From: Dehalococcoidia bacterium
GTDB taxonomy: Bacteria; Chloroflexota; Dehalococcoidia; Lucifugimonadales; UBA2985
Reading direction: 5' to 3'
Assembly (NCBI GenBank): GCA_965218945.1
Contig: OZ244718.1
Location: forward strand, 2,845,324 to 2,909,323
Length of the DNA: 64,000 nt
The notes under the pieces are model-generated. The model did not search any database, was not told the origin of the DNA, and saw only the letters and a program-made list of their open reading frames with translations. Shown here in pieces: positions 4,979-58,217 of this stretch. Position numbers and translations under genes: made by a program. Position 1 is the first letter of the stretch; the number at the start of each line of letters is the position of its first letter.

Positions 4979-6805
4979 CTACCGGGGAGGGTTCGTGCGC
5001 CTGGTGGCGGTGTCGGCGATGAAACTGGACAGGTTGAGAGCGGTGTGGATCAGGCCTATGTGGGAGTAGGCCTGCGGAAAGTTTCCCAACTGCCGGTTGG
5101 CGCCGGTGTCAAACATCTCGGCGAGGAGGCCCACGTGGTTGGTATGCTTTGTGATGACCTCGTGGAAATAGTCAAGCCCGCGGTCGGTCTGTCCGGTGTA
5201 GATGAGATTACCAATCAGCCAGAAGCTGAGGAGGGTGAAAGCGCCCTCATCCTGGCCCTCCAGGCCGTCGTCCGTCTCCCCCGGGAGGTATCGCCACACC
5301 AGGGGGCCGTCCGTCAGCTCCCGCTCAATGGCGTCGACGTTCTGGCGGACGCGGGGGTCGTCCCGCGGCACCAGGCCCAGAAACGGAATAATCAGATTGG
5401 AGGCGTCCAGTGCGTCGTGGCCGTACCGCTGGCGGAAGGCCTGCTTGTTGGGAGTCCATCCATCGTTCAGAATCTCGGACCTGATGCGGGCGGCGGTCCG
5501 TGACCATCGATTATACAGATTCCTTTCGCCCCTTGCGGCGGCAATGTAAGCGGCGCGGTGTAGTCCCACCCAACACAGGACCTTGGAGTAGACGAAGTGC
5601 TGCATCTCGCCCCGCACCTCCCAAACGCCGCGGTCCTTTCGATGCCAGTTTGTCATTATGACCTCAGCCATGGAGTGGACCAGATCCCAGGCTTCCGGTA
5701 GTATGTCGCCCTCAAGAAGGAAGAGGGAATGGACTGCGATAATCACCTCTCCAAAGACGTCCAACTGCAGGTGCCTGGCGGCCCCGTTGCCGATCCGGAC
5801 AGGGGGCGAGTCCTCGAAGCCACTGAGGTGGTCCAGGGTGTACTCTCTGAGCGATGATGTCGGGGTGATCCCATAGAGAATACGGGTCTTCCGACGCGTC
5901 AACTGGCACTGTTCCAGCAGCCAGTGGATGTACCGGTCTGCGCCGTAGACGTCGCCCAGGCGGTACAGGATGTCCACCGTGAAGGCGGAGTCACGCAGCC
6001 AGGAGTACCGGTAGTCCCAGTTGCGGGAGCCGCCAATGGTCTCCGGCAGGCTTGTGGTGGGCGCAGCGACAATGGCCCCCGTGCGCCGGTACATCATCAG
6101 GTGAAGCACCAGGAAAGAGCGGACAACGGCGTCCCGCCAGAGTCCCTCGTAGTTCATGCCGGCCACCAGCCCCTGCCAGTAGTTCCGCGTCTGTCTGAGC
6201 TTCAGTGGAGTGCGAAGCCGTTCAAGGCTTGTCGCGCGGCCGTGACCGTACACAAGCACGAAGGTTACGGTCTGCCCCTCTCTGAGTGTGAAGTTGCAGC
6301 CGACGCCCCGGTCATCAAATGGGAGGGGGATGCTGGCGACAAGGGTCATGGTCTGTCGGCCGCCCCGCGCCTGGACGGCTCCTTCGCGCAGCTTCCGAAA
6401 CTCAGGCACTGTGCGCGCGTAGTCGTGTATTGGATTGAAGTCGCATCGCATCTCAACACTGCCGGAGATGCAGGTGACGATGCGGTGAATTTCGTGGGAG
6501 GCCGCAAAGGGAGTGGCCGGGTCGTCGTCGTGGTCGCTGACGGGCATGAAGTCGGTGATGGTAACTATGCCTGCATCCGTGGTGAAGGTGGTCTCCAGGA
6601 TGTTGGTGTCCGGCAGGTACTCCTGAGTGGAGGTGAAGCCGGGATCAGTGGGGCTGATGCGGAAGCGTCCCCCGTTATCCTGGTCCAGAATGGCGGTGAA
6701 GACGCTGGGAGAATCGAAGCGGGGAAAGCAACACCAGTCCACGGAGCCGTCGGCGCCGACCAGCGCCGCAGATGCCATGTCGCCTATCAGTCCGTAGTTA
6801 TACAT
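4979..6805 (-). CDS. Glycoside hydrolase family 15 (trehalase/glucoamylase-like)
   Basis: YGLIGD, AAPTTSLPE, RNWDYRYSWLRD, GVWEVR and LGNFPQAYSH motifs; start MYNYGL. Confidence 0.93.
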   Translation of the reverse strand: MYNYGLIGDMASAALVGADGSVDWCCFPRFDSPSVFTAILDQDNGGRFRISPTDPGFTSTQEYLPDTNILETTFTTDAGIVTITDFMPVSDHDDDPATPFAASHEIHRIVTCISGSVEMRCDFNPIHDYARTVPEFRKLREGAVQARGGRQTMTLVASIPLPFDDRGVGCNFTLREGQTVTFVLVYGHGRATSLERLRTPLKLRQTRNYWQGLVAGMNYEGLWRDAVVRSFLVLHLMMYRRTGAIVAAPTTSLPETIGGSRNWDYRYSWLRDSAFTVDILYRLGDVYGADRYIHWLLEQCQLTRRKTRILYGITPTSSLREYTLDHLSGFEDSPPVRIGNGAARHLQLDVFGEVIIAVHSLFLLEGDILPEAWDLVHSMAEVIMTNWHRKDRGVWEVRGEMQHFVYSKVLCWVGLHRAAYIAAARGERNLYNRWSRTAARIRSEILNDGWTPNKQAFRQRYGHDALDASNLIIPFLGLVPRDDPRVRQNVDAIERELTDGPLVWRYLPGETDDGLEGQDEGAFTLLSFWLIGNLIYTGQTDRGLDYFHEVITKHTNHVGLLAEMFDTGANRQLGNFPQAYSHIGLIHTALNLSSFIADTATRRTNPPR

Positions 6806-6931
6806 AGTGGTGTGGGTGAGAGCGACCGACGAATGGCAGGAGTTTACCATTGGCGCGCCGACTATGCAAACGAGACGGACGGGGCACCGGACGCGCAGCC
6901 TTGGCGGTAGGATCAGCCAACCATGATTGGG

Positions 6932-7222
6932 TCAGACATATACAGCCTCTCGCTCCACGTAGGGGCGGAGCTCAGGGCGAAGCGTCTTCTCGGTTACCAG
7001 GTCTACCGGGCGATCCAGCAGGTCCTCAATGTAGAATTGGACACCGAAGTACGTCCTTGACGTGGCCGGTCCGTCGAAGCTGACCAAGATGTCCACGTCG
7101 CTCCCGTCCGTAGCTTGATCCCGGGCAAAGGAGCCGAACAAAGCGAGTCCGGTCACGCCGAAACGCTCCGCGAGGGTATGCTTGTGGGCCTGGAGCTTTT
7201 CCAGGATTTCATCTCTGTTCAT
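6932..7222 (-). CDS. Minimal nucleotidyltransferase (MntA-type antitoxin); HepT partner reduced to an overlapping 8-codon stub
   Basis: LFGSFARDQA..GSDVDILV..VDLVT motifs; overlapping ATG TCT GAC stops after 8 codons. Confidence 0.9.
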   Translation of the reverse strand: MNRDEILEKLQAHKHTLAERFGVTGLALFGSFARDQATDGSDVDILVSFDGPATSRTYFGVQFYIEDLLDRPVDLVTEKTLRPELRPYVEREAVYV

Positions 7223-7282
7223 TGATCCGGCTACTCGGCGTGGTTGTACTCGTTGAGCTTGGAATGGCGGTCATTGAGCCGA

Positions 7283-7359
7283 AGGCCGTAGTTGTACATA
7301 TTTGTGTAGTGAGAGCGACTGGCGGATGCCAGGAGCTTACCATTGGAGCGTTGAGTATG
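7283..7359 (-). repeat. Degenerate direct repeat of the GH15 promoter and first codons (partner 6789-6866)
   Basis: About 78 bp at roughly 75-80% identity by eye; encodes MYNYGL then diverges. Confidence 0.85.
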
Positions 7360-7380
7360 TATACATAAATTGGTGTGTAC

Positions 7381-9405
7381 CTACTGCCTTACGAATTTGA
7401 GTGTCCACATAGCACCGCTCTCAGCCTCTACCTCTATCGGTGTCCTGCCGGGCGGAATCTCATTATATGCACTCCCGACGGTGACGAGCTTCCTGCCGCT
7501 CCATGTGTCAGCCCTTTCAATCACAACATTATCACCACCTATTTCTATGGTGAAGTAAGCTTCCGAACAGGAGTCGAGTACGGCATAGCAACGGCTGTTC
7601 CCTGAGATGCTTATCTCCACTACCCACTCACCAGCAGAGAGATCGACAAACTTGACATCTTGGCCTTGGCCTGAAATGGTCTCATCCAGATCCAACGCGG
7701 GTGGCGGCTCAATGAACTCTAGCGCCCACGAAGCATCTTGCGAAACGTTTATCTCAACTGCGGCCTTGCCAGGTGAAATCTCAGAGCTTTCATTCCCGAC
7801 GGTGATGAGAGACCTGCCGCTCCACGTGTCAGCCCGCACACTTGCAACGTAGCTATCACCAACTTGTATCGAAATAGAGTCGCGTATCGAAATAGAGTCG
7901 CGGTCGCCGTCATTCGATACGCTCATCTCCACAACCCATTCCCCAACAGGAAGATCCACAATCCTTACATCCGTCCCCTGACCAGACATCACCTCACTCG
8001 AAGCCAAAGTGGATAGAGTAGTCGCGCGTACGAACTCAAGAGTCCATGTAGCACCACTCTCAGCTTCTACCTCTATCGGAGTTCTGCCAGGCGGAATCTC
8101 ATCATATGCACTCCCGACAGTGACGAGCTTCTTACCGCTCCATGTATCAGCGTCTTCAAACACAACATCGTCACCACCTATTTCTATGGTGAAGTAAGCT
8201 TCCGAACAGGAGTCGAGTACGGCATAGCAACGGCTGTTCCCTGAGATGCTTATCTCCACTACCCACTCACCAGCAGAGAGATCGACAAACTTGACATCTT
8301 GACCTCGACCTGAAATCGTCTCATCTGAAGCTAAAGTAGGTGGTGGGTCTACAAATGTGAGTGTCCATGAAGCTTCTTGCGCCACGTCTATTTCAATCGC
8401 GGTGTTGCCAGGCGGAATCTCGGAGCGTTCACTTCCAACCACTATAAGTGATCTGCCGCTCCACGTGTCAGCCCGCACACTTGCAACGTAGCTATCACCA
8501 ACTTGTATCGAAATAGAGTCGCGTATCGAAATAGAGTCGCGGTCGCCGTCATTCGATACGCTCATCTCCACAACCCATTCCCCAACAGGAAGATCCACAA
8601 TCCTTACATCCGTCCCCTGACCAGATATCGAAGGAGGTGGCATTGGCCTGGGCGTGGGTGTAGGTGTGGGCTCCGGCGTCGGCGTGGCCGTTGGAGTCCG
8701 TGTTGGAGTTGGTTCTGGCAACGACGTGGGTGTGCTAGCCTGCGTCTGTGCAACTTCGGGTGTTTGTACAGCTGTTAGCTCTGGTGTGGGAGTTGTGGTC
8801 TCGGCCCGAGCCTGAGCGGTTCCGGGAGTTGAAGCCGGCGAGCTAGGAGAAGACTCGGATGTCACGGTCACCACTGGAATAGCGTCGGATTGGGCAGTCG
8901 GTGTCGGCTGCGTGGTATTGGTTATTGTCGGTGTATTCGCAGGAGCTTCTGGAATGACACTGCACCCGATCACGTCAATGGTGAATGGGTCTCTATCCTC
9001 TCCTTCGTCTCCTTTGCCACGCAGAGTCACGCGTTCACCTTTCCGAATAGAAGTAATGTCGCCTAAGTGACTCTCACTGAAATGGCACCTAACCGAGGTC
9101 AATGACATGCTACCAGCGCTCAAGTCAACGTAGTAGGCATCACCACTCCCTCCACCCGACACCGCTTCAATAGTTCCGCTTACCTCTAGGACTTTTCCAT
9201 CGTATTTCTGATTTGCAGCGACCTCGTTGGCCTCGTAGTCTTCCGCCAAGCGAGAAGCGGTCACGCGGACGTCAATCGGAGCTCCGGCGATATCGATCTC
9301 GGCTTGCTCAGCTTCTTCTTCTGAGACACTGCACCCCGCTATTACTGCCATCAATAGCAGACCAATCAGTGCAATGGCCATAAGCGGGATGGGATTAGCT
9401 CGCAT
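7381..9405 (-). CDS. Lipoprotein: OB-fold (tRNA_anti-like) domain, Pro/Thr linker and a duplicated 213-aa beta-rich module
   Basis: Lipobox IAGC; YEANEVAANQKYDGKVLEVSG OB-fold motif; internal repeat with 639-bp period. Confidence 0.85.
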   Translation of the reverse strand: MRANPIPLMAIALIGLLLMAVIAGCSVSEEEAEQAEIDIAGAPIDVRVTASRLAEDYEANEVAANQKYDGKVLEVSGTIEAVSGGGSGDAYYVDLSAGSMSLTSVRCHFSESHLGDITSIRKGERVTLRGKGDEGEDRDPFTIDVIGCSVIPEAPANTPTITNTTQPTPTAQSDAIPVVTVTSESSPSSPASTPGTAQARAETTTPTPELTAVQTPEVAQTQASTPTSLPEPTPTRTPTATPTPEPTPTPTPRPMPPPSISGQGTDVRIVDLPVGEWVVEMSVSNDGDRDSISIRDSISIQVGDSYVASVRADTWSGRSLIVVGSERSEIPPGNTAIEIDVAQEASWTLTFVDPPPTLASDETISGRGQDVKFVDLSAGEWVVEISISGNSRCYAVLDSCSEAYFTIEIGGDDVVFEDADTWSGKKLVTVGSAYDEIPPGRTPIEVEAESGATWTLEFVRATTLSTLASSEVMSGQGTDVRIVDLPVGEWVVEMSVSNDGDRDSISIRDSISIQVGDSYVASVRADTWSGRSLITVGNESSEISPGKAAVEINVSQDASWALEFIEPPPALDLDETISGQGQDVKFVDLSAGEWVVEISISGNSRCYAVLDSCSEAYFTIEIGGDNVVIERADTWSGRKLVTVGSAYNEIPPGRTPIEVEAESGAMWTLKFVRQ

Positions 9406-9487
9406 TTATGTTCTCCTTCTCATGGCCGTGATTATTCAACTGGCATAGAGGCGCATTGTCTAGACAGAGTCAAACTCTTGTCGTAAG

Positions 9488-9559
<72 letters not shown>

Positions 9560-9593
9560 TTGAATCAAAGCTTAAGGCTGCGACAAAGGGGTG

Positions 9594-15566: not shown

Positions 15567-15935
15567 CTAGCTCCCGGATTTCAAGACCGCCGTGAAGACA
15601 AGCGCAAGGGCTGCCGGAACATAAAACATTCCAATAGAGGCAGCTGACAGTACGCAGAGGCCCGCAAGGCCCAGGGCGATTCCCCATAGAAGCGCGATGT
15701 TGGCGTTGCCCTTCCATACGGCCCGCAGTACGACGCCGGTAAGCAGTACCGGCACGAGAAGCACAAGAACGCCATACAGGCCAGCCACCTGTATCAGAGT
15801 AGAGGTGTGTGACTCACCGTTAGATGACCCGCTGTAGACGGGCCCAAGAGCCAGGAATATCCCGGCGACCCACGCCAAGGCATGAGCCACCCACGCTGAG
15901 ATAAGTACAGGTTTTACGGATCTGAATATCTGCAT
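15567..15935 (-). CDS. Small 4-TM membrane protein, tandem paralog 1
   Basis: Hydrophobic segments; shares MQIFRSVKPVLISAW with the next ORF. Confidence 0.75.
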   Translation of the reverse strand: MQIFRSVKPVLISAWVAHALAWVAGIFLALGPVYSGSSNGESHTSTLIQVAGLYGVLVLLVPVLLTGVVLRAVWKGNANIALLWGIALGLAGLCVLSAASIGMFYVPAALALVFTAVLKSGS

Positions 15936-16008
15936 CAGGACGCTGCGGCACGGGGCCGACTCTCAGACATAAGCTTTCTTCCCGTCTTCTTCGCTCTAAA
16001 ATTGCTCC

Positions 16009-16383
16009 CTACGCAACGGAACGACCTCTAGGATAGGTGAACGCCGTGAAGACCAGCGCAAGGGCCGCAGGCAGGTAGAACACTCCAATCGAGAGTATCG
16101 ATAAAGCGCATAACACCAACAGCAACACTGCACTACCCCAGAGAAGCAAGAAGCGCCTCATCTGGCTGATGTCAGCACGTCGGACTACCAACACCACAAT
16201 GCCCGTCAGCAGTACCGGCACGAAAAGCAACCAAATCACGTACAGACCGTTCTTCTCAACCAGAGAACTTGATGACCCACTGTAGACTGGCCCAAAAGCC
16301 AGGAAGATGCCGGCTATCCACGCCAGGCCGTGGGCCGCCCACGCTGAGATAAGTACAGGTTTTACGGATCTGAATATCTGCAT
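16009..16383 (-). CDS. Small 4-TM membrane protein, tandem paralog 2
   Basis: Paralog of 15567-15935. Confidence 0.75.
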   Translation of the reverse strand: MQIFRSVKPVLISAWAAHGLAWIAGIFLAFGPVYSGSSSSLVEKNGLYVIWLLFVPVLLTGIVVLVVRRADISQMRRFLLLWGSAVLLLVLCALSILSIGVFYLPAALALVFTAFTYPRGRSVA

Positions 16384-16593
16384 CAGGACGCTGCGGCACA
16401 GGGCCGAACCTTTCCAACGGTGTTACGAAGACTTCCGAACGCCAGGAACAATCATGTTGAATATTAGAGTCCATCGCCTATCTGGTCAACCACACTGAAA
16501 CGCCGACAGAGGACCATCTAACGGTTCGCCATTTCCCCTCTGTGATAAAATGCGCCTGAAGTAGTCCCCAAATTCTGAAGTGAGGTGCAAGCT

Positions 16594-23499: not shown

Positions 23500-23529
23500 A
23501 TGCTAGTGAAACGGTGAAAGAGAACCATC

Positions 23530-24750
23530 ATGGACTTTGATTACCACTACACCGAGGAGCAGGAGACGTTCAGGCGGGAGGTGCGCGCCTGGCTGGAGGA
23601 GAACGTCCCCGACGACATGGCTGAGCCGGTGGACAGGAATGACTTGACCGACGAGCAGTACGCCTTCGCCCGCGACCTGGACGTGCGGCTGGCGGAAAAG
23701 GGCTGGCTGTCGCCAACCATGCCCACGGAGTACGGCGGAGGGGGATTGAGCCAGGAGCACGCGGCCATCATCGCTGAGGAGTTCTTCCGCAAGGGGCTGG
23801 TCTCGCCCGTCAGCGGCTCCGCTCCCCCGGCCCTTGTGGTCTGGGGGACGGAGGAGCAGAAGCAGGAGTTCCTGACGCCCATCCTGATGGGGGATAAGAC
23901 ATCGGTCATTCTCCTGACGGAACCCAAGGGCGGGGCCGACCTGGCCGCTCTGGAGACCCGCGCGGTCAGGGACGGGGACGACTGGCTCATCACCGGCGCC
24001 AAGTGCTTCATAAGCCATCGTCGCACGCCGGACCTCATGTTCGGGCCCGCGATCACTGACCCGGACTCGCCCCGTCATCGCAACCTGGGTTACTTCGTCA
24101 TACCGGTCCCGTCGCCCGGCCTAACGCTGGAGAAGCAGGACCTGCTGGTCGGAAACGAGCAGCTCTACATCCACATGGACAACGTCAGGGTGCCTGGCAG
24201 GAACCTGATTGGCGGCGACCACCAGGGCTGGCAGGTGACTCAGACGGCCCTGGGCGACGAGCAGGCGACTCCGGTGGTTGGCGTGCCCAGGCGTCCGCTG
24301 TTCCAGATGGACGCCATCCACGAGTGGTTCTCATGCTTCCCCTGGCAGGACATGGTGGGCTACCTGCAAACGACCCCGCGTGACGGTAAGTCCATCGGCG
24401 GCGATCCGCTGGTGCAGCAGACTGCCATCGACTGCTATCTGGAGGCGCACATCTACAACCTCCTGGCGCGCCGGAACTTCTGGATGCACCACAGCGGCGA
24501 GAAGTCGACCTACCACGGCCACGAGGCGGACGTGCACAAGAGGAGCATGTGCGTTCGCAACGTGACCAGGATCCGGGAGATTATGGGGATGTACACCCAT
24601 CTCAACGGCGAAGACCCGCTTGCGCCCCTGGGAGGGCTACCGGACGTCTGCGGCCGCGACGCCTACACGGCCCAGCACGGACACGGCAGCATGAACATCG
24701 CGAAAGTGGTGCTGGCCCGGCAGCTGGGCATCAGCCGGACGCAGCGATAG
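23530..24750 (+). CDS. Acyl-CoA dehydrogenase family protein
   Basis: FRREVRAWL, EYGGGG, GTEEQK, TEPKGGADLA and ITGAKCFIS motifs. Confidence 0.9.
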   Translation: MDFDYHYTEEQETFRREVRAWLEENVPDDMAEPVDRNDLTDEQYAFARDLDVRLAEKGWLSPTMPTEYGGGGLSQEHAAIIAEEFFRKGLVSPVSGSAPPALVVWGTEEQKQEFLTPILMGDKTSVILLTEPKGGADLAALETRAVRDGDDWLITGAKCFISHRRTPDLMFGPAITDPDSPRHRNLGYFVIPVPSPGLTLEKQDLLVGNEQLYIHMDNVRVPGRNLIGGDHQGWQVTQTALGDEQATPVVGVPRRPLFQMDAIHEWFSCFPWQDMVGYLQTTPRDGKSIGGDPLVQQTAIDCYLEAHIYNLLARRNFWMHHSGEKSTYHGHEADVHKRSMCVRNVTRIREIMGMYTHLNGEDPLAPLGGLPDVCGRDAYTAQHGHGSMNIAKVVLARQLGISRTQR

Positions 24751-24761
24751 GCCGGAGCCTA

Positions 24762-24812
24762 CGTCCTGGGAGACCCCAATCCCCTGTGGCGCGACGAGGA
24801 GTACGCAAAGGG
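24762..24812 (+). pseudogene. Fragment duplicating an internal segment of the MaoC-N gene (DPNPLWxDEEYAKG; partner about 25797-25847)
   Basis: GACCCCAATCCCCTGTGGCGCGACGAGGAGTACGCAAAGGG vs GACCCCAATCCTCTCTGGCACGACGAGGAGTACGCCAAGGG. Confidence 0.8.
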
Positions 24813-24824
24813 AGAAATGAGCCG

Positions 24825-25031
24825 ATGAAAATGATGGTAACGATTGACCGGGATGAAGACGGCGTCTGGATCGTAGAATGTCCGGCCATTCCGGGTTGCG
24901 TCAGCCAGGGAAACACCAAAGAGGAAGCCTTGGCCAACATACGGGAAGCCATCGCGCTCTGCTTGGAAGTGCGGGCCGAACAGGGCCTGCCGCTGAGCAT
25001 TGAGACGCAGAAGGTGGAAGTGGCGCTGTAA
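24825..25031 (+). CDS. hicB: HicB family antitoxin (short form)
   Basis: DEDGVWIVECPAIPGCVSQGNTKEEALANIREAIALCLE; real start ATG 24825. Confidence 0.9.
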   Translation: MKMMVTIDRDEDGVWIVECPAIPGCVSQGNTKEEALANIREAIALCLEVRAEQGLPLSIETQKVEVAL

Positions 25032-25100
25032 TGCCTCCCTTGCGGGCTTTGAGCAGCGAGCAAACGGTGCGCGTGATAATCAAGGCAAAAGACACCACAT
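25031..25100 (+). pseudogene. hicA: HicA toxin N-terminal stub, truncated just before the REP-GIY-YIG element
   Basis: TAATG overlap with hicB; MPPLRALSSEQTVRV resembles a HicA N-terminus; the GSH motif is absent. Confidence 0.65.
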
Positions 25101-25471
25101 CGTCATTCCGGCGGAAGCCGGAATCCAGAGGACACCCAAGTGAAACAGCCCTGTGTCTATATCATGGCAAGCAAACGCAACGGCACACTGTACATAGGAA
25201 CAACATCTAATCTTGTTCAGCGGGTCTGGCAGCACAAGAACGATATTGCAGCTGGGTTCACCAAACGTTATCGCGTGCACACTCTGGTTTGGTATGAAGG
25301 CCACGCAACAATGCTGAACGCAATTACTCGGGAGAAACTGCTCAAGGAGTGGAAACGGGTCTGGAAGCTCGATTTGATTGAGAGAATCAATCCGTCATGG
25401 CGGGATTTATATGCGGATGTGATATGAACAGGGTTCAGGCACCCTGGATTCCGGCTTCCGCCGGAATGACG
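25101..25471. mobile_element. GIY-YIG gene bracketed by perfect 28-bp inverted REP repeats (candidate mobile unit)
   Basis: CGTCATTCCGGCGGAAGCCGGAATCCAG (25101-25128) and its exact reverse complement (25444-25471). Confidence 0.7.
25140..25427 (+). CDS. GIY-YIG nuclease family protein (UPF0213-like)
   Basis: VYIMASKRNGTLYIGTTSNL..RVWQH...FT.RY...LVWYE...AI.REK.LK.W.R.WK. Confidence 0.93.
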   Translation: MKQPCVYIMASKRNGTLYIGTTSNLVQRVWQHKNDIAAGFTKRYRVHTLVWYEGHATMLNAITREKLLKEWKRVWKLDLIERINPSWRDLYADVI

Positions 25472-25639
25472 GGACGGGGGCTTATCTGTTTCTCCAGCAA
25501 TGACAGAAGCTACTAGGGAACCTACTATATAATGGAACTCAAGGATTACCAAGCCAGCAAGCTGAACGCCTCTGTCCGATGGCTGAACGCGCCAGTGCTA
25601 CCGGCGCCTCAGATAGGCCCGCCTAGGGAGGGATCCACC

Positions 25640-25687
25640 ATGTACTTTGATTACCACTACACGGAGGAGCGGGAGGTGTCGCCTTGA
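25640..25687 (+). pseudogene. Remnant of an acyl-CoA dehydrogenase 5' end (MYFDYHYTEEREV), coupled to MaoC-N
   Basis: Matches 23530-23585 with an internal deletion; its TGA overlaps the TTG start at 25684. Confidence 0.8.
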
Positions 25688-26160
25688 CCCAGGATCATGA
25701 CGGCCTTATTACCGAGGAGATGCGCAGGGCCATCGGCGTGGAGTCGGAGCCGGGCGTGATCGAGGTTGAGAAGGAGACCATCCGCAGGGTGGCCGACGCC
25801 TTGGACGACCCCAATCCTCTCTGGCACGACGAGGAGTACGCCAAGGGCACCTCCCGCGAGGGCATCATCGCCTTTCCAATCGCATTCCATCCCTCCACGC
25901 GCGCAGGGAGGCCCAACGCGAGCTACGAGAGCCCGGCCCGCGGCGGCGTGGTGGCCAACGACGAGTGGGAGTTCTTTGAGCCGGTCCGCCCGGGGGACAG
26001 GATAACCGTGACCACCAGGGTTGTAGACTTCTACGAGAGGGAGGGCAGGCAGGGAAGGATGCTCTTCACCGTTACGGAGACCACCTACCGGAACCAGCAC
26101 GGCCGCGTGGCGATGCTCCAGCGCAGGACTGGCGTGGGGTTCGCTCCGAGGAAGCAGTAA
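25684..26160 (+). CDS. MaoC-like dehydratase N-terminal (FAS1-like hotdog) subunit
   Basis: VEKETIRRVADALDDPNPLWHDEEYA; EWEFFEPVRPGD; GRQGRMLF. Confidence 0.88.
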   Translation: MTQDHDGLITEEMRRAIGVESEPGVIEVEKETIRRVADALDDPNPLWHDEEYAKGTSREGIIAFPIAFHPSTRAGRPNASYESPARGGVVANDEWEFFEPVRPGDRITVTTRVVDFYEREGRQGRMLFTVTETTYRNQHGRVAMLQRRTGVGFAPRKQ

Positions 26161-26172
26161 AGGAGCGGGCAA

Positions 26173-26595
26173 ATGGCGGAGCAGCTCTACTACGAGGATG
26201 TTTCGGAAGGGATGACCATACCCGGTCTGGAGAAGGTCGTCACCTCAAGGTCGCTGGTGATGTATTGCGCCGCCTACGAGGATTTTGCAGAGATACACCA
26301 CGATAAGGACGCAGCTCAGCAGGCGGGGTTCCCCAGTACCGTTGTGCCCGGCCTGTTCACCAGCGCGTTCCTGGCGCAGATGCTGACAGATTGGATCACA
26401 CCGGAGGGCAGCATCAGGAGGCTTCAGGCCAACTACCGGCGTCCCCACTTCTCAGGCGAAAAGGTCGTCTGCAAGGGGCGCGTGACCGCTATGCGCGTCG
26501 AGGAGGGAGAGCGCCTGGTCGAGTGCGAGGTGTGGGTCGAGAACGCGGAGGGCGAGACGAGTACGACCGGGAGCGCGGTGGTGATCCTGCCTTAA
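26173..26595 (+). CDS. MaoC family dehydratase
   Basis: YYEDVSEG, DFAEIHHD..AA..AGF..VVPG hydratase motif. Confidence 0.9.
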   Translation: MAEQLYYEDVSEGMTIPGLEKVVTSRSLVMYCAAYEDFAEIHHDKDAAQQAGFPSTVVPGLFTSAFLAQMLTDWITPEGSIRRLQANYRRPHFSGEKVVCKGRVTAMRVEEGERLVECEVWVENAEGETSTTGSAVVILP

Positions 26596-26629
26596 CGCTA
26601 GCCTCTGGCGTGCGGCTGTCACTCATCCA

Positions 26630-26854
26630 CTAGGCCCCGGACGCCACCGCTACTTCCACAATGTCGGCGGTGGCCTGGGGTTTGGGGATAGGCTCCCCAT
26701 CTTGACGCATACCCTCTATGTGGAACTCGATCGCTTCCCGGATTTCCTTAAGCAGCGCATCGCGGGTGCTGGCTGTAGCCACGCAGCCTGGCAGGTCCGG
26801 CACATAGGCCGCGTAGTTGTTGGGAGTCTTTTCAATTACGACAGTGTATTTCAT
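26630..26854 (-). CDS. hicB: HicB family antitoxin
   Basis: YTVVIEKTPNNYAAYVPDLPGCVAT...IREAIEFHIEG. Confidence 0.93.
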   Translation of the reverse strand: MKYTVVIEKTPNNYAAYVPDLPGCVATASTRDALLKEIREAIEFHIEGMRQDGEPIPKPQATADIVEVAVASGA

Positions 26855-26862
26855 GGTCTAGG

Positions 26863-27054
26863 TTACTCCTTGAGGCCGGACTGCTTCAAAACGCTGTCCC
26901 AAGTACCAGGGGGCAGATCGTCACCTGACTTGCCGGGTATAGTAACGCGGCCGGGTTTAACAGGATGCTTGTATTGTCTGTGGCTTCCCCTTGTCCGAAC
27001 CAAGCGCCATCCGTCCCTCTCTATCAATTCAATTGCTTCTCTAACCTTTGGCAC
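26863..27054 (-). CDS. hicA: HicA family toxin
   Basis: DGWRLVRTRGSHRQYKHP.KPGRVTIPG...GT..SVLKQSGL. Confidence 0.93.
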   Translation of the reverse strand: MPKVREAIELIERDGWRLVRTRGSHRQYKHPVKPGRVTIPGKSGDDLPPGTWDSVLKQSGLKE

Positions 27055-27247: not shown

Positions 27248-27367
27248 CAAGGGGCGCGTGACCGCTATGCGCGTCGAGGGGGGAGAGAGCCTGGTCGAGT
27301 GCGAGGTGTGGGTTGAGAACGCTGAGGGCGAGACGAGTACGACCGGGAGCGCGGTGGTGGTCCTGCC
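27248..27367 (+). repeat. 120-bp direct repeat of the maoC 3' end (partner 26472-26591)
   Basis: 5 mismatches in 120 bp counted by eye; this copy continues VVLPSRSTG*. Confidence 0.92.
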
Positions 27368-28530
27368 GTCCCGCTCGACCGGCTAGCCGGACGCGGGCGG
27401 CCGAGAGGGTCCAGGAACACATAGTCTGAGGAGTCCCCACTCTCCTGAGCTATCATCGTCTTCGCTTCGGCTGCGACAACGGTTGTTTTCCCGGCCAGGT
27501 AATGGCTGATCTGGGTCACGCTCACTCTTTTCGTCGCCTTGCTGGCAAGTATGCCCGCTGTGAGACCGGCCAGCAGCGCAACGCCCGCCGGCCCACTCGC
27601 GGCTCCGACAAGCGCGACCGCCGACAGCGTCGCTCCCGCGCCAACACCACCCCTGAGTTGGCCGTCGATCAGCTCTGCGTACTCGCCGGTCTCGTGCGCC
27701 TTGTGAAAGGCCTTAGCCAGGGACACGACCGTCACAATGAGCAGCAGCGGGTTGGCGCTGATGGCGGCCGACAGTCCCATGCCTCCTACCAGCCTGGCAA
27801 AGGTCGCGGTCTGAGCGCGGTTCCAGCTGAAGGTCAATGCGACTGCCCCGACCGCGCCGCCGAGCAGCTCCGCAGCATCATAGGTGTTCAGGTCGTAGAA
27901 CCACCCCTTTGGTATGTTGAAGCCCGACTCCAGCGCGCCGGCCACCCGGTCGAAGGTGGCATTGTCCCAGTTCGCAAGGGGAAGGCCCCTGATGGGTGTC
28001 ACGCCTCTGAGGAGTCCCTGAACCGTGCCCAAGCCCTCCCGGACGATGCTGTCCTCTGGAGATGCACCCCCGGCCGCTCTGCCGGCTCCGAGAATGGTGT
28101 GTCCTCCGTCGAACAGCCTGTGGTAGGCGCTGCTGCCCGCCTGCGCTGCAAGATCCTCGGCGTCCATAGCCTTGTCGTAGATGGATTCGCTGCCCTTGAC
28201 CAAGTTCTGAAGCAGGTCGTTCAGGCCCTCGGACAGCCTTAGCGTCAGAATACTCTGGGTGGTTGACATCAGCGTAGTGGCGACAGAGGTGGTCGCGTCC
28301 CACGCGGTCCTTGAGCCGGTCTTCACACGCTCGGCCGTCGCATGGGTGACGTCCGACGCCGTCCTGGAAGCGCCATGCCCAACCGAAGTCGCGGTGTCCG
28401 CGAACTTCCTGGAGCCCCTCTTTACCTGTTTCGCCGCGGTGGTCTTAGAGCCGGACGTATCCTCGGCTCCTTCCGCGGTGGGCTGAAGCTCTTCCACGTT
28501 CAGATACTTCAATTCATCCGGGTTGGTCAT
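27265..28530 (-). CDS. Hypothetical protein with hydrophobic Gly/Ala-rich C-terminal helices
   Basis: 421-aa ORF with a HRLFDGGHT segment; the last ~35 codons are antisense to the maoC repeat. Confidence 0.65.
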   Translation of the reverse strand: MTNPDELKYLNVEELQPTAEGAEDTSGSKTTAAKQVKRGSRKFADTATSVGHGASRTASDVTHATAERVKTGSRTAWDATTSVATTLMSTTQSILTLRLSEGLNDLLQNLVKGSESIYDKAMDAEDLAAQAGSSAYHRLFDGGHTILGAGRAAGGASPEDSIVREGLGTVQGLLRGVTPIRGLPLANWDNATFDRVAGALESGFNIPKGWFYDLNTYDAAELLGGAVGAVALTFSWNRAQTATFARLVGGMGLSAAISANPLLLIVTVVSLAKAFHKAHETGEYAELIDGQLRGGVGAGATLSAVALVGAASGPAGVALLAGLTAGILASKATKRVSVTQISHYLAGKTTVVAAEAKTMIAQESGDSSDYVFLDPLGRPRPASRSSGTAGPPPRSRSYSSRPQRSQPTPRTRPGSLPPRRA

Positions 28531-28581
28531 ATCTCGATTATCCAGACTTGGGTGTAACCCAAGCGCTCTTGTCTCACCTTC

Positions 28582-29534
28582 CTAGTCAGGCATCGTGATT
28601 ATCGATGCGGTAATTCGAACCGTATAGTGGAATACCTCGTTCAGGAACTCTGCCCAGGATTCGCCGTCATTTGCGAGGTTATCAAGTATGAATACCTTGT
28701 CTACGCCGAGCCTGTCCAGGCGATCCCGCATTTCGGAAGTGACTATTCCGGCAATGAGTATGTTCACACAATTCGGAGGCGTTGCCTCAAAGCTCTTCTG
28801 TATTGCTCCCAGCCTTTCGAGTGCGCCCGCCGGGTCTTTGCCCCCTTCACCTCAATAGTTGCAACAACCCTCGGTTCCCCGTTTACGACCTGACTGAACT
28901 CAACGTCCGGTTCCGAGCCGTAGCGCATGGAATAACCGTCCGGCAACTCAAATTGTGTCTGCTCGGCATTATGCTGGACTATAAGTTGTCGGCTGTCCAG
29001 CCAATCCCTGATCCTGGTCTTGATAAGCTGCTCTGCGTCCTGGCCGATGATGTTTCGGACTGTGCCGTCCAATCCTATGCCCATGTTGGCGATTACGTTC
29101 CTGTATCCGTTCTCAAGCGTCCAGCCGGTGGAACCCTCGATTATGGAAGAGATTACAGCGTTGTACAGCTGCGCAACGCGAAGCACGTGGGCCTCTCTCA
29201 CAGCAGTCGTTCTAGTCCCGTCCTCCCAGGAGTCCACGGCCCCCGCTATCTCGGTAACGCGCTTGCGAGGCAGCAATGCGATGCCCCGGTAGTATGCAGA
29301 TGCGCGAGGGTGTCGGGTCAGCAATAAAGGGTGTGCAAAAACCAGCTTGGGATCAATACCGGAAGATGTTACGTGATCCCATGCTTCCTGACTGATCATT
29401 AGCTCGTCCAGAGGCGTGAACGTCAGTTCGTCGGGGAATTCGGCAATCGCTTGCCTTAGCGCCAGGTCGGTCCTCTGCTGGATACGTTGCGCAATTACCT
29501 CCGAGCGTCTCCTGGCGTCATCCAGCTTGGCCAT
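28582..29534 (-). pseudogene. XcyI-family type II restriction endonuclease, frameshifted in a G run
   Basis: SEPDV...IEVKG; one extra G at 28841-28845 restores GGKDPAGALERLGAIQKSF and joins ORF 28582-28767. Confidence 0.8.
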
Positions 29535-31026
29535 ATCCCCGCACCCACTTGTACACGCACTTTCTTAGCTCCCGACGCCCAAATCGCCCCATCTGCTGAC
29601 TGGAGTTGCCCTTACCACGGGGCAACGCCCAGATATGCTCGCACACAAACCCGGACCGTTCAGCATAGTCGGATAGAATCAGGTCTACGGGCACCTCTTC
29701 GCCGTGATACTGCACGTTGTCGTTCACCATAATCACGGTTCCACCCGGCCTGACGATACGGCCCAACTCCGCTATGATTACCGCCATCTCAAGAAAGTAT
29801 CCCTCTATCAGACGGACGACGTGGGGATTGCTTAGCTCACTCATATGCTCTCTGAGAATGGTCAGAACCTCGTGAACAGCCGCCTGCTCCTCGTACATTC
29901 CAAATGCCGCGTCGATCAAGGGAGACTCTCCGTATTCCTTTCGCAGCAGCTCTCTTTTGGGCTTGTTCTCAACCGTTGCAGACAACATGCTCTGGCGCAG
30001 AGCACTAAAGGCGTCCTGGTCGTATCCAAGCCACGCAAGTTCAAGGGCGTAGGTCCTTGTGTAATCGTACCGGTTTGCGTACGGCGGAGAGGTGATGACC
30101 ATATCGAACGAGCTATCGGGCAACAGACGAAGATGCTCCAAGCTGGAGCCTGCGATGAACTCCGGACGCCCTCCCCCGTACCGCTGCTTGAGCAGATCCA
30201 TATCCTCCGCCATCTCGCCAAGACGGGCGTCCAAAGCGAACGGGAACGGCAGAATCGGCTCCTTGTCTACGCGCCCTCTGAGCTGTCGCCCCGACCGGTG
30301 GTCCCATCGAAGGTATTGCCCGTCCTTGCGCGTATAGCTCACGGACTCCAGTACGCTCATGCAGGCGAAGTCCAGCATGGTCTGGATACTGGGGGCATCC
30401 ACCGCGCTGATGAACTCCCGAGCCTTGGCAAGCTCCGTTTCCGTCTCTGCAGGGAAAGCGGACTCCGTGATTCGCACGTGGCGAAATGTGTGCTCCTGGC
30501 CAGGCTCGTTGCCGGACTGCACGTGCTTGAGCAGTTCCGCGGCAGCTTCTCTGAAAGCTTCTGGCCGCAGGCCGTTGGCCGCATGAGCAATCGCGTTGCC
30601 GGTCAGTACACCGACGGGGATGATTTCGATTCCCGTGGCCTGCAGGCCCCTGCCGGCCGCGATGAGTGGAGTAGTCCCAATGCCGGAGAAGGGATCAAGG
30701 ACAGACCGCGGTTGAAAGTCCGCTATCAGCCGCTCCACCAGTTCCCTTGAGAATCCCTCCTTGTATTTCATCCACCGGAAGCCCGGGGCGCGACGGTTGC
30801 CCTGGTACGATACCGCTCTACGCGTCAGCGTCGGGTTGATGGACAAGCGTTCTTCAAACCGTTTGTGTAAGGCGCGGCGTTGGTCAACACTCCCACCGTT
30901 GGGAGACTCCACAGCGGCCATACACAGGCTTGTTGTCGAGTCGGCGTGTGCAGTCTGACGCAGAAATCCCGGGAGCAGGGGCTGCTCTTCAGTGGTTGCT
31001 GCTTTCAATTCATCCGGGTTGGTCAT
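29518..31026 (-). CDS. Site-specific DNA methyltransferase (N4-cytosine type)
   Basis: LDPFSGIGTT (motif I) and ITSPPY (motif IV); overlaps the REase start. Confidence 0.9.
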   Translation of the reverse strand: MTNPDELKAATTEEQPLLPGFLRQTAHADSTTSLCMAAVESPNGGSVDQRRALHKRFEERLSINPTLTRRAVSYQGNRRAPGFRWMKYKEGFSRELVERLIADFQPRSVLDPFSGIGTTPLIAAGRGLQATGIEIIPVGVLTGNAIAHAANGLRPEAFREAAAELLKHVQSGNEPGQEHTFRHVRITESAFPAETETELAKAREFISAVDAPSIQTMLDFACMSVLESVSYTRKDGQYLRWDHRSGRQLRGRVDKEPILPFPFALDARLGEMAEDMDLLKQRYGGGRPEFIAGSSLEHLRLLPDSSFDMVITSPPYANRYDYTRTYALELAWLGYDQDAFSALRQSMLSATVENKPKRELLRKEYGESPLIDAAFGMYEEQAAVHEVLTILREHMSELSNPHVVRLIEGYFLEMAVIIAELGRIVRPGGTVIMVNDNVQYHGEEVPVDLILSDYAERSGFVCEHIWALPRGKGNSSQQMGRFGRRELRKCVYKWVRGYGQAG

Positions 31027-31048
31027 GTTGCGATTATCCAGCCTTGGG
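31004..31048 (-). repeat. 45-bp direct repeat (promoter plus MTNPDELK codons; partner 28508-28552)
   Basis: 41/45 identical; GATAAT-N6-ATG in both copies. Confidence 0.92.
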
Positions 31049-54018: not shown

Positions 54019-54195
54019 CGTCATTCCCGCCCCCGTATCGGAGTACGGGGCAGGCTACGAGCGGGAATCTAGGTGGGGGGACTCCCGTCTGCAGAGACCT
54101 TTGCATAGCCTTTTGCGCCCCCATCCTAACCTTCCCCCGCGGGCGGGGGAAGGGATTTCTCGCCCCCTTCAGGGGGAGAGTCAGAGAGGGGGCGT
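54019..54195. repeat. CGTC-type REP with a nested hairpin, plus a CCC...GGG-rich palindromic doublet
   Basis: CGTCATTCCCGC[CCCCGTATCGGAGTACGGGGCAGGC]TACGAGCGGGAATCT; CCTTCCCCCGCGGGCGGGGGAAGG. Confidence 0.72.
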
Positions 54196-54259
54196 ACCTC
54201 TTTGCCAGTTATGAAAGCCTCCATTCTGCATGGGAGCGACAATTAGGATCGGGCTCACC

Positions 54260-56546: not shown

Positions 56547-56623
56547 CGTAGAGCACCTCAGATTCAGATTCGCCCGGCCGAGGGGCCTAGGACACTCATA
56601 TGTGACTTTCAGGCCGATTCGTT

Positions 56624-56676
56624 ACCGCTCATGGCCTGCCCCGTACTTGGTACGGGGGGTGAGCTTGTCGAATCAT
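56624..56676. repeat. REP interrupted by a nested 24-nt hairpin
   Basis: ACCGCTCATG[GCCTGCCCCGTACTTGGTACGGGG]GGTGAGCTTGTCGAATCAT. Confidence 0.78.
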
Positions 56677-56708
56677 TTGAGCGGGGTAGTACGCTACACC
56701 CCGCCGAC

Positions 56709-57653
56709 CTATAACTCGCCGTTGGACGTAAGGAACTGCTCAGCGTCTATGGCGGCCATGCACCCGGTGCCCGCAGCCGTCACCGCCTGCCGGTAGACCC
56801 AGTCCTGCACGTCGCCGCTGGCAAAGACCCCTGGCACGTTGGTCTTGGTGCCGTCGTGGGTGATGATGTACCCGTTCTCGTTTGTGTCCACATGCCCGAT
56901 AAAGGGCTCCGTATTGGGCTTGTGTCCTATCGCCATGAACACCCCGTCTATGGGCCTTACAATCACCTCGTCGGTCTTGACGTTGCGAAGCTTGACCGAC
57001 TTCACCTCGCCCTCCTCGACTCCCAGGATCTCCTCCACCACCGAATCCCAGACGAAGTCTATCTTCGGGTTGTTGAAGGCCCGCTCCTGCATTATCCTGG
57101 AGGCCCTCAGCTGGTCCCGCCTGTGCACCACGTGCACCTTCGAGGCGAACTTGGTGAGGAAGGTGGACTCCTCCATCGCCGTATCGCCGCCGCCAACGAC
57201 AACGAGTTCCTTGTCCCTGAAGAAGAACCCGTCGCATGTGGCGCAGGCCGAAACACCCCGCCCCATAAGCTCCGCCTCCCCGGGAACGCCCAAAAGGCTA
57301 GCCGTAGCGCCGGAGGAGATGATCACGGTCTTTGCATAGTAGTTGTCCTCCTCGTCCACCTCTATGCGGAACGGGCGCTTGGAGAAGTCGACCGCCGTGA
57401 CGCTGCCGTTCACGTATCGCGCCCCGAACCGCTCCGCCTGCTCCCGGAACTTGAACATAAGCTCCGGCCCCATCACACCCTCAGGGAATCCGGGGTAGTT
57501 CTCCACGTCCGTGGTTATGGTGAGCTGTCCGCCCGGTGTGATGCCGTCTATCACCAGGGGCTTGAGGTCAGCCCGGGCGGCGTAGAGGGCTGCGGTGTCG
57601 CCCGCCGGCCCCGACCCAATAATAAGCACGTTCTCTATCTGGTTTTCCGTCAC
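56709..57653 (-). CDS. trxB: Thioredoxin-disulfide reductase
   Basis: IGSGPAG, GGQLTITTDVENYPG, CATCDG, GGGDTA and YRQAVTAAG motifs. Confidence 0.97.
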   Translation of the reverse strand: MTENQIENVLIIGSGPAGDTAALYAARADLKPLVIDGITPGGQLTITTDVENYPGFPEGVMGPELMFKFREQAERFGARYVNGSVTAVDFSKRPFRIEVDEEDNYYAKTVIISSGATASLLGVPGEAELMGRGVSACATCDGFFFRDKELVVVGGGDTAMEESTFLTKFASKVHVVHRRDQLRASRIMQERAFNNPKIDFVWDSVVEEILGVEEGEVKSVKLRNVKTDEVIVRPIDGVFMAIGHKPNTEPFIGHVDTNENGYIITHDGTKTNVPGVFASGDVQDWVYRQAVTAAGTGCMAAIDAEQFLTSNGEL

Positions 57654-57695
57654 GGTTCCTCCCCTTGCAACAATGCTTCAAAAGTCCGGGATACC

Positions 57696-58082
57696 CTATG
57701 GGTCCGGCTCGTCCTGGTCTTGCCCAAGGACGGCTCTGATGGCCGACAGGTCCACGCTGTGAGCCTGCATAGTACGGGTGTGGTCTTGCACGAGGGCCTC
57801 TATCCGCTCAAGGCGTTCCTCCATCCGTCCCTGTCGATCCTCCATCAGCCCCAGTCGTTCCTCTATCAGCCCCAGCCGTTCCTCCATCAGCCCCAGCCGT
57901 TCCTCCATCCGAACCAGTCGATTGCTGGTATCCACGTAGGCAAGGGCCAAGCGTTCCAGCGCTTCACCCATCCTGTCCAGGATCGCGCCGTGGGCATTCT
58001 GTCCCTGCGCCATCGTTGAGGTCTGGTCTTGCAGCTCCGCGATGTGCCGTTCCGCCGATGAAAGTCGTTCTTCTGTGGTCAT
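57696..58082 (-). CDS. Coiled-coil protein with heptad tandem repeats
   Basis: MEERLGL-type units; five 21-bp units at 57814-57918. Confidence 0.75.
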   Translation of the reverse strand: MTTEERLSSAERHIAELQDQTSTMAQGQNAHGAILDRMGEALERLALAYVDTSNRLVRMEERLGLMEERLGLIEERLGLMEDRQGRMEERLERIEALVQDHTRTMQAHSVDLSAIRAVLGQDQDEPDP

Positions 58083-58217
58083 TCCCGTATTCCCGTCTGT
58101 CCGCGTCGAACTCCGTAGTAGCGCAGGGTGTCGCCCGCCGGCCTCGACCCGATAATAAGCGCGTTCTCTACACGGTTATCCGTCACGACTCCTCCCCTTG
58201 CGACAATGCTGTCAAAA
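58079..58217 (-). pseudogene. Duplicated trxB upstream region and first ~20 codons, forming a leader ORF coupled to the coiled-coil gene
   Basis: 58127-58217 vs 57594-57683, about 88% identical; MTDNRVENALIIGSRPAGDT...RE* with ATGA overlap at 58082. Confidence 0.88.

Follow-up and report, generated by a model that had tools for sequence, protein, structure and literature searches.

Cargo genes between duplicated gene ends in a Dehalococcoidia genome: probable insertions with long target duplication

In a 64,000-nucleotide stretch of the genome of a Dehalococcoidia bacterium (NCBI GenBank assembly GCA_965218945.1, contig OZ244718.1), small genes lie between two direct copies of the end of a resident gene. 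The whole stretch, G000:C1:2845324-2909323, is called the window. An earlier note on this DNA had claimed six cases of gene capture here, and five of them are borne out: cargo lies between duplicated gene ends for an mntA-like gene, a hicB-like gene with a GIY-YIG gene, a hicAB pair, an XcyI-type restriction-modification (R-M) pair, and a coiled-coil open reading frame (ORF). The sixth, a pair of membrane-protein genes, is an ordinary tandem gene duplication and not a capture. We consider it probable that the five cases are insertions with long target duplication (ILTD) made by host recombination, after which the spare copy eroded.

Five cargo regions lie between duplicated ends of resident genes

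The host genome (G000) is a single contig of 3.15 Mb with 60% G+C. We compared it with six relatives of the same genus (G001-G006, G003 among them), with G011 and G018 from another genus of the same family, and with G022 from another family of the same order. Positions are window coordinates, written as w plus a number where they stand beside other numbering. Repeats were detected by two independent scans, a repeat finder run on the window and a self-BLAST of the whole genome, and genes were named by Pfam scans of the cargo and its neighbours. Both scans returned seven local direct-repeat pairs at the named places. All the pairs named earlier are thus present, measuring 41-137 nt, at identities of 80-96% and not the claimed 78-99%. 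In the self-BLAST, each pair in the window reached E <= 1e-4 against the whole 3.15-Mb genome.

GH15 5' end: 6792-6857 and 7286-7350, 83% identity; 56-nt core 6816-6871 and 7309-7364, 80%
Membrane paralogs: 15823-15959 and 16271-16407, 91%; 15585-15639 and 16039-16093, 82%
acd 5' end: 23519-23565 and 25629-25675, 87%
maoC-N: 24757-24812 and 25792-25847, 84%
maoC-C 3' end: 26472-26599 and 27248-27375, 94%
Start of the 421-aa gene (MTNPDELK): 28508-28552 and 31004-31048, 91%
trxB 5' end: 57594-57683 and 58127-58217, 88%

Genome-wide, each pair is two-copy and unique to its own locus, the pairs are unrelated to one another, as the earlier note had stated, and none belongs to a multi-copy element. 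Nor are the repeats tRNA copies; the sole tRNA gene in the window, tRNA-Met, lies at 9487-9559. Their variable lengths far exceed those of transposon target-site duplications, and there is no fixed short duplication of the target. The inserts of the five cargo cases measure 0.43-2.45 kb. Because the same junctions recur in the independent assemblies of G001 and G005 and in short-read contigs of other sequencing runs, they are not assembly errors. Where the duplicated end is a 5' end, the upstream remnant is fused in frame or coupled by stop and start to the next gene, a geometry that we confirmed for trxB, GH15, acd, and the methylase of the R-M pair.

The membrane pair follows a different pattern, and whole head-to-tail paralogs whose copy number varies among relatives were seen at this pair only.

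15567..16383, minus strand: two whole tandem membrane paralogs of 122 and 124 aa

At protein level the two remain similar for 262 nt past the DNA repeat, and the gene is present once in G001, G002, and G003, twice in G000 and G006, and three times in G005.

Empty alleles of three window sites hold a single copy of the target

The target without cargo was found in relatives, in a single copy, at three of the five window sites and at three of six events checked elsewhere in the genome. First, at the hicAB site, the flanks in G002 and G003 overlap on a single copy of the stretch with no insert. Second, in G011 and G018 an AAA-ATPase gene runs directly into one trxB 5' copy. Third, at the acd/maoC-N site, one metagenome contig of run X8 links w24746 and w25699 through a 37-nt spacer; this spacer would carry the acd stop, a ribosome-binding site (RBS), and the maoC-N start, i.e., an intact operon. 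The metagenome evidence comes from four runs and consists of contigs throughout, from which rare forms get dropped, with 15 of 78 joints listed. The expectation of single-copy empty sites in relatives therefore holds for hicAB, trxB, and acd/maoC-N and, outside the window, for the events ev10, ev14, and ev29; for GH15/mntA it does not hold cleanly, and for the R-M pair it does not hold. The empty alleles support insertions in which part of the target was duplicated and the resident gene stayed whole.

Stubs at the acd/maoC-N site fit one long duplication that eroded differently in each lineage

The layout at this site is the most intricate of the window cases.

23519..24750, plus strand: full acyl-CoA dehydrogenase gene acd (ATG 23530; Pfam Acyl-CoA_dh), with the 5' repeat copy at 23519-23565
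24757..24812, plus strand: maoC-N fragment (maoC-N nt 109-164), in frame behind the acd stop
24825..25031, plus strand: cargo 2a, lone hicB-like antitoxin gene (Pfam HicB_lk_antitox, 7.3e-11)
25101..25471, plus strand: cargo 2b, GIY-YIG gene 25140-25427 (Pfam GIY-YIG, 3.2e-17) with its flanking arms
25629..25675, plus strand: acd 5' remnant, an RBS and 15 codons, whose TGA stop overlaps the TTG start of maoC-N (TTGA)
25684..26595, plus strand: resident hot-dog genes maoC-N (25684-26160) and maoC-C (26173-26595) (Pfam FAS1_DH_region and MaoC_dehydratas)

The reading frame of the maoC-N fragment terminates in ATGA on the hicB start. The stub in front of the hicB cassette differs among lineages: it is maoC-N(109-164) in G000, G001, and G005 and acd(1-46) in G003 and G004. 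In G002, acd(4-49) precedes the GIY-YIG gene, and in G004 only stubs of acd and maoC-C are left around the cargo genes. These differing stubs would be explained by differential decay of a single duplication: the arrangement fits one insertion that duplicated acd through maoC-N(164), at least 1.4 kb, followed by lineage-by-lineage decay of the spare parts. The phrase "duplication followed by erosion", offered in the earlier note as one possible route, describes this site well.

The same layout bears on an alternative order of events, in which a gene end is first duplicated in tandem, cargo arrives later at or near the joint, and the spare copies erode. Tandem duplication is evidently active in the genus, as the one to three copies of the membrane paralog show, and to arrive at the acd/maoC-N layout, at least 1.4 kb must have been duplicated and two internal pieces deleted. 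Against this order, no examined relative holds two copies without cargo, every precise empty allele is single-copy, and the foreign look of one copy (below) is left unexplained. We regard duplication before cargo as unlikely.

The acd-to-hicB join and the GIY-YIG unit gave further observations. The maoC-N fragment (24748-24827) continues the acd frame with a single TAG between, and read-through of it would lengthen the product by 25 residues, up to the TGA that overlaps the hicB start. The GIY-YIG gene is flanked by perfect 28-nt inverted arms at 25101-25128 and 25444-25471, each with its own hairpin, and is the only unit among the window cases with terminal inverted repeats. It is absent from G005 and from a contig of run X1. 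We rejected the idea that the arms belong to a high-copy element of the host genome, which holds one forward and one reverse exact copy and one GIY-YIG gene. In the four metagenome runs, summed contig depth is 4600-8600 over 24808-25509 versus about 50 alongside, free-standing 370-nt contigs have their ends exactly at 25102 and 25471, and at the arms many contigs break off or change to a different sequence. Despite its one copy in G000, the unit looks like a small element of very high abundance that occurs in many contexts.

The maoC-C 3' site carries different cargo in three sister genomes

Immediately downstream, the 3' end of maoC-C is duplicated around a toxin-antitoxin pair.

26472..26599, plus strand: left copy of the maoC-C 3' end; the gene ends early (..ILP and stop), with the stop at the cargo edge
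26630..27054, minus strand: cargo 3, hicA 26863-27054 (Pfam HicA_toxin, 2.8e-21) and hicB 26630-26854 (Pfam HicB_lk_antitox, 9.4e-13)
27248..27375, plus strand: right copy of the maoC-C 3' end, which doubles as the 3' end of a convergent 421-aa gene (27265-28530, minus strand)

The hicAB cargo has the same orientation as the 421-aa gene. Three sister genomes hold three different cargos here: hicAB within a 128-nt duplication in G000, a 199-aa Mrr_N gene with a G+C content at third codon positions (GC3) of 0.43 within a 177-nt duplication at 97% identity in G001, and an LRR gene with a bPH_2 membrane gene within a 136-nt duplication in G005. Both inner boundaries of the duplication differ among the three, those of G001 enclosing the others. 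The cargo-near end of the left maoC copy in G000 is without an 11-nt stretch and there resembles the G002 and G003 alleles, unlike its own right copy.

Remnant gene starts upstream of the cargo at the trxB, GH15, and R-M sites

At trxB, the upstream copy of the duplicated 5' region leads into the cargo by a stop-start overlap.

57594..57683, minus strand: trxB 5' region, gene-proximal copy (GTG start 57653)
57696..58082, minus strand: cargo 5, 128-aa coiled-coil ORF with 21-nt internal repeats
58079..58217, minus strand: upstream trxB 5' copy with a 35-codon remnant ORF (GTG 58186) ending in ATGA on the cargo start

The coiled-coil ORF matched no Pfam family above the cut-off. The two-copy state is common to G000, G001, and G005. 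Just downstream of trxB lies an intergenic element of about 60 nt (56625-56685) that recurs in all genomes of the genus; the enclosing 109-nt stretch (56600-56708) has 30 BLAST matches in G000, and in G006 the R-M pair occupies the element's place.

The GH15 site has a similar geometry without overlap.

6792..6871, minus strand: GH15 5' region, gene-proximal repeat copy; probable true start ATG 6805 (MYNYGLIGD)
6932..7222, minus strand: cargo 1, mntA-like nucleotidyltransferase of 96 aa without a HepT partner (Pfam NTP_transf_2, 1.9e-16)
7231..7364, minus strand: upstream GH15 5' copy with a 22-codon remnant ORF (ATG 7299 to TAG 7231)

The GH15 gene (4979-6850) matches Pfam Glyco_hydro_15, and its G005 orthologue begins with MYNYGLIGD. 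The stop of the remnant lies 8 nt upstream of the mntA ATG. Among the seven genus genomes, a second GH15 5' copy is present only in G000. The stretch from GH15 to tRNA-Met (6876-9559) is a variable island, with mntA and a 674-aa lipoprotein-like gene containing 321-nt internal repeats in G000, a truncated mntA followed by a 422-aa ATPase gene and a 217-aa HNH gene of low GC3 in G001, and a 688-aa UvrD-like gene with GC3 0.45 in G005.

The R-M pair lies between two copies of the start of the 421-aa gene.

28508..28552, minus strand: repeat covering the true 421-aa gene start, with 22 nt in front of it and the MTNPDELK codons
28764..31026, minus strand: cargo 4, XcyI-type restriction gene 28764-29534 and methylase gene 29518-31026 (Pfam RE_XcyI and N6_N4_Mtase)
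31004..31048, minus strand: upstream copy of the 421-aa gene start, at which the methylase now begins

The methylase begins with an in-frame fusion of eight codons from the 421-aa gene, which itself matches no Pfam family; these 8 borrowed codons and 27 extra ones precede the position of the G006 start (residue 36 in G000). The restriction gene in G000 is split (28582-29534) into ORFs of 256 and 61 aa, is one 317-aa ORF in G006, and has a likewise split tblastn match in G005. The nuclease that accompanies the methylase here may be broken. In contigs of other runs there are 1-nt indels at 28840-28842.

Between hisS and the 421-aa gene, four of the six genus genomes compared (G001, G002, G003, and G006) hold a 314-aa gene and a radical-SAM-like gene, and G000 and G005 hold the R-M pair in place of this module. 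The 314-aa gene has no Pfam family; its 343-aa neighbour has a CxxxCxxC motif typical of radical SAM proteins, and it is called radical-SAM-like on that motif. The module (L013:5316-7251 in G001) has a GC3 of 0.50-0.61 versus about 0.8 in its neighbours and therefore also looks acquired. In G006 the R-M pair, at 81-84% identity, is placed behind trxB. HisS is 97% identical to that of G000 in G001 and 91% in G005 (amino acids), and the R-M allele is nonetheless in G005 and not in G001. No homologue of the 421-aa gene was found in the eight hisS neighbourhoods from outside the genus.

Direct repeats around co-oriented cargo recur across the genome

To place the window in context, the self-alignment was read genome-wide for two-copy local repeats of 40-400 nt at a spacing of 100-6000 nt. 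There are 72 direct high-scoring pairs (66 events) versus 1 inverted. Thirty-two events in 3.1 Mb are isolated, i.e., their similarity has no protein-level extension, and six of these are in the window; repeat lengths range from 41 to 264 nt. Event classes were assigned by eye from ORF maps, in which the ORFs are mechanical and not gene calls. An automatic assignment of the gene end overlapped by each repeat was dropped because it chose antisense ORFs in G+C-rich DNA, e.g., at trxB. Three of the 32 lie inside one long ORF, two are N-termini of tandem paralogs, two are paralogous tRNA genes, one (ev61) adjoins a serine recombinase gene, and one (ev43) contains an IS5-type transposase. About 23 events are left after these exclusions, and most are cargo between gene-end or intergenic copies; one lacks any cargo ORF, and the status of a few is uncertain. 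A local BLAST around position 2.034 Mb of G000 showed a single pair, of 58 nt, at 2035883/2037169.

These numbers bear on the simplest alternative, that the pairs are chance matches, gene-conversion patches between paralogs, or assembly errors. It does hold for part of the 32 events (the three within ORFs, the two paralog N-termini, and the two tRNA genes) and for the membrane pair. For the five cargo cases it is refuted by the E-values, the ratio of 72 to 1, the independently assembled junctions, and the empty alleles, and as a general account it is scarcely credible.

Eleven of 20 cargo ORFs have a Pfam family (Ion_trans, AHJR-like/HEPN, RusA, NYN, PaREP1/HEPN twice, AlbA_2, NUDIX, LRR, DDE transposase, and GNAT) and nine have none. 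In all 16 events that could be judged, the cargo points the same way as the gene with the duplicated end; four more were not judgeable. If some 70% of neighbouring genes share an orientation in any case, the probability of 16 of 16 is about 0.003.

Six events outside the window were compared in five genus relatives, and three have precise empty sites: ev10 in four of the five; ev14 in three, the remaining two carrying different inserts; and ev29 in one, with three more also lacking a further gene. At ev9, ev11, and ev21 the relatives show other arrangements at the same sites. The ev9 locus (G000:C1:322955-324582) holds two cargo modules, a PIN-like toxin pair and an AHJR-like/HEPN gene with RusA, around copies of a 251-nt stretch at the 3' end of a hot-dog gene, and their order is opposite to that in G001 and G005. 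It looks like an array that has grown or been reshuffled at one docking stretch. Separately, an element of about 245 nt (G000:C1:460011-460257) matches more than 40 places in G001 and many in G005, G002, and G006; it appears to be one of the genus's repeat families, akin to miniature inverted-repeat transposable elements, and one copy lies inside the ev9 locus of G001.

Alleles appear to move between lineages

At ev10 the right repeat copy with at least 1.1 kb of flank is about 88% identical to G001 and G005; the left side is about 96% identical, as G001 and G005 are to each other. The divergent flank indicates that copies can enter with foreign DNA and that whole alleles move by recombination in their flanks. 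For this reason, the divergence of a repeat pair gives no date for its event, and the earlier conclusion that differing identities imply events of different ages is not supported. Together with the left maoC copy at the hicAB site, ev10 hints that one repeat copy may arrive with the cargo.

These data suggest a further alternative, in which ready-made repeat-cargo-repeat alleles are imported from diverged relatives by double crossover in flanking core genes, making the loci hot spots of allele exchange. The ev10 flank speaks for such import, as do the R-M allele that G000 shares with G005 and not with the closer G001, and the module order at ev9, which differs between G000 and G001/G005. Import accounts for spread and not for origin, however, since some genome first made each duplication, and the boundaries at the maoC-C 3' site differ between sister genomes. 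We hold it possible, if rather doubtful, as the explanation of the five cases.

No recombinase accompanies the window cargos

Profile scans of the genome covered Phage_integrase (PF00589), Resolvase (PF00239), and DDE_Tnp_1 (PF01609), other transposase families being outside the scan. Phage_integrase has seven matches, the nearest 186 kb from the window. Resolvase has 15, none of them in the window, and DDE_Tnp_1 has 43, one in the window (w43479-44432) at least 12 kb from any pair. Neither these scans nor the Pfam scans found a recombinase inside or adjoining the five window cargos, in agreement with the earlier statement that no integrase is adjacent. The one DDE match is an IS5-type transposase ORF of 317 aa with five genome copies of identical scores, and this insertion sequence (IS) is probably active or recently was so.

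A recombinase acting in trans from elsewhere in the genome, with the repeats as duplicated attachment sites, is conceivable in a genome with 7 tyrosine recombinase, 15 serine recombinase, and 43 DDE transposase matches, and ev61 and ev43 do lie with such genes. The pairs share no sequence, however, and hence no common attachment site; their lengths range from 41 to 264 nt; boundaries at one site vary among lineages; and terminal inverted repeats are absent save at the GIY-YIG unit. We consider this explanation very unlikely. Since the cargo bears no recombinase, the joins would have been made by host recombination.

With regard to repair and uptake genes, Ku, sought as a mark of end-joining, had no match in the genome (96.85% complete). 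The supply of DNA by gene transfer agents or transformation, which the earlier note had put forward, is a conjecture: a ComEC gene is present, but the ComEC family also matches 10 of 14 control genomes.

A host-recombination route and the points against it

We suggest the following course of events for ILTD by host recombination. A small cassette, apparently promoter-less, would come to be flanked on both sides by a sequence that includes the end of a resident gene. We infer that the most likely route is a single, Campbell-type crossover with incoming DNA in which the cargo sits beside a copy of the target stretch; within the host-recombination reading we give this crossover about an even chance, and a tandem duplication with cargo at the new joint would be a formally equivalent product. 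Duplications can be long, reaching 1.4 kb or more at acd/maoC-N if the reconstruction there is right. The spare copy would then erode to a stub, and those stubs that keep the resident gene whole would survive; retention would count for convergent genes with overlapping ends and for genes that depend on their own start region. From the stubs the cargo may gain either an RBS with a start or an overlap of stop and start, and this geometry suggests that the remnants may serve expression. Once formed, a site could be re-used, with cargos replacing or joining one another at the same stretch, and whole alleles could pass between lineages by ordinary homologous recombination.

Several observations weigh against this account. 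At the GH15/mntA site we found no clean empty allele, all six genus relatives being single-copy there but followed by a different island. In G002, G003, and G006 the coiled-coil gene is present with a single trxB copy, which points to loss of the upstream stub there or to a later date for the duplication. The R-M pair of G006 has no flanking repeat of at least 18 nt. In G000 the R-M case reads as an allelic substitution by a mobile R-M unit, of the kind in the tables of Furuta et al., and not as an empty-site insertion: a two-gene module was replaced. At the maoC-C 3' site, three separate events and one old event with turnover of cargo would fit equally well. The cargo at the ev14 site in G001 has no second repeat copy. 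A Campbell event predicts that bases unlike those of the empty allele gather at the cargo-near ends of both copies; the left copy of ev29 equals that of G001 and the two right-copy differences are cargo-distal, and the "foreign-looking" right flank of ev14 is common to G001 at 95%, a result that decides neither way. Among the 15 of 78 metagenome joints listed, from contigs only, no joint skipped hicAB or the R-M pair, and no circular form or excision joint was seen. Lastly, the density of isolated events, compared within the order, is no higher in G000 than in its relatives and marks nothing special to the host genome: per 400 kb, seven pieces of G000 have 6, 5, 3, 5, 2, 3, and 5, G022 has 4, and G003 has 2. 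At least some events in G022 share the same layout.

The earlier proposal of a general, integrase-independent route is partly supported, by the absence of recombinases and by the empty sites, but duplication is not obligatory, as trxB in G002, G003, and G006 and the R-M pair in G006 show. The pattern exceeds chance in its direct against inverted repeats (72 versus 1), and its density is similar in two relatives.

Relation to known systems

Insertion with long target duplication was reportedly described by Nobusato, Uchiyama, Ohashi and Kobayashi in 2000 (in Gene 259:99). The route inferred in the earlier note is not new. In the passages of Furuta, Abe and Kobayashi 2010 (PMC2853133) drawn on here, ILTD is an insert of <20 kb between direct repeats of >30 bp, with one copy in a related genome and no mobile-element genes. 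Those passages give repeat lengths of 43-423 nt in nine and then more cases from Helicobacter, Haemophilus, Thermus, Neisseria, Microcystis, and others, report a methylase made by gene fusion at the joint and allelic substitution at the same loci, and propose a cycle of insertion, amplification through the repeats, and release. That the insert hold both R and M genes was, in the same passages, a rule of the screen and not part of the mechanism, and PMC3457768 extends ILTD to "other DNAs".

Measured against this description, all five window cases have direct repeats of >30 bp (41-137 nt), inserts of <20 kb, no integrase or transposase, and repeats that are neither multi-copy elements nor tRNA. 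A single-copy empty site was found for hicAB, trxB, and acd/maoC-N, not cleanly for GH15/mntA, and not for the R-M pair. The likeness to the published cases, as far as the cited passages go, extends to an R-M pair among the cargos, a methylase fusion at the joint, and allelic substitution. The differences lie in the cargo, the host, and the re-use of sites. Only one of the five cargos holds both R and M genes; the others include a lone antitoxin-like gene, hicAB, GIY-YIG, and a coiled-coil ORF, and elsewhere in the genome we found NYN, PaREP1/HEPN, AlbA_2, NUDIX, and ion-channel cargos. As most cargos are not R-M genes, restriction cutting cannot drive those events. Dehalococcoidia are absent from the taxon lists in the cited passages of PMC2853133, and one site here holds three cargos in three sister genomes. 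The observation, real for five of the six cases, extends across the genome and the order. The process is already known; new are the host lineage, the mostly non-R-M range of cargo, the way in which different cargos occupy one stretch in sister genomes, and the clear stop-start coupling of stubs.

Three other processes yield comparable layouts. Campbell-type integration, as in laboratory insertion-duplication mutagenesis, gives target-cargo-target with a duplication as long as the homologous piece of the circle, needs no site-specific enzyme, and leaves one repeat copy partly donor-derived. The window differs in that its present homologous pieces are very short (41-137 nt), and the divergent tract of ev10 extends past the repeat, which a simple event does not predict. 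In the C-terminal displacement of Rhs and other polymorphic toxins, reportedly described by Jackson et al. in 2009, a new 3' piece with downstream genes is said to recombine at a conserved end, the old 3' end becoming a downstream orphan. The maoC-C 3' case and other 3'-end events have this layout, but the resident genes here are metabolic, the cargo is no new tip, and half of the events are at 5' ends. Integrons, too, collect promoter-less, co-oriented single-gene cassettes at a re-used site, expressed from outside, with toxin-antitoxin genes as common cargo; here there is no IntI, attI, attC, or shared site, no PF00589 match within 186 kb, and the junction repeats are direct copies of host gene ends, unrelated and different at each locus. 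IS elements and transposons agree no better with duplications of variable length (41-137 nt), no adjacent transposase, and inverted arms at the GIY-YIG unit only.

The resemblance to integrons invites a bolder picture, in which gene ends of these compact genomes would be re-usable docking sites of an enzyme-free, integron-like system. Promoter-less cassettes on small circles, each with a stub of a host gene, would dock by host recombination at any place matching the stub and form repeat-cargo-repeat-cargo arrays. They would be retained since recombination between the stubs would delete an addictive toxin-antitoxin or R-M gene, and their stubs would become expression cassettes. We offer this as speculation and think it quite improbable.

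Implications

Bacterial accessory genes without an adjacent mobile element are common objects whose arrival route is usually left open. The host genome offers a dense and readable set of them: about 23 otherwise unexplained events, with empty, filled, and re-filled alleles in sister genomes. Their mostly non-restriction cargos argue that ILTD is a process of host recombination and not of cargo activity. Co-orientation and stop-start overlaps suggest how a promoter-less newcomer may be expressed without harm to an essential neighbour like trxB. For annotation, remnant ORFs and borrowed N-termini, such as that of the methylase, explain odd gene starts and pseudo-fragments.

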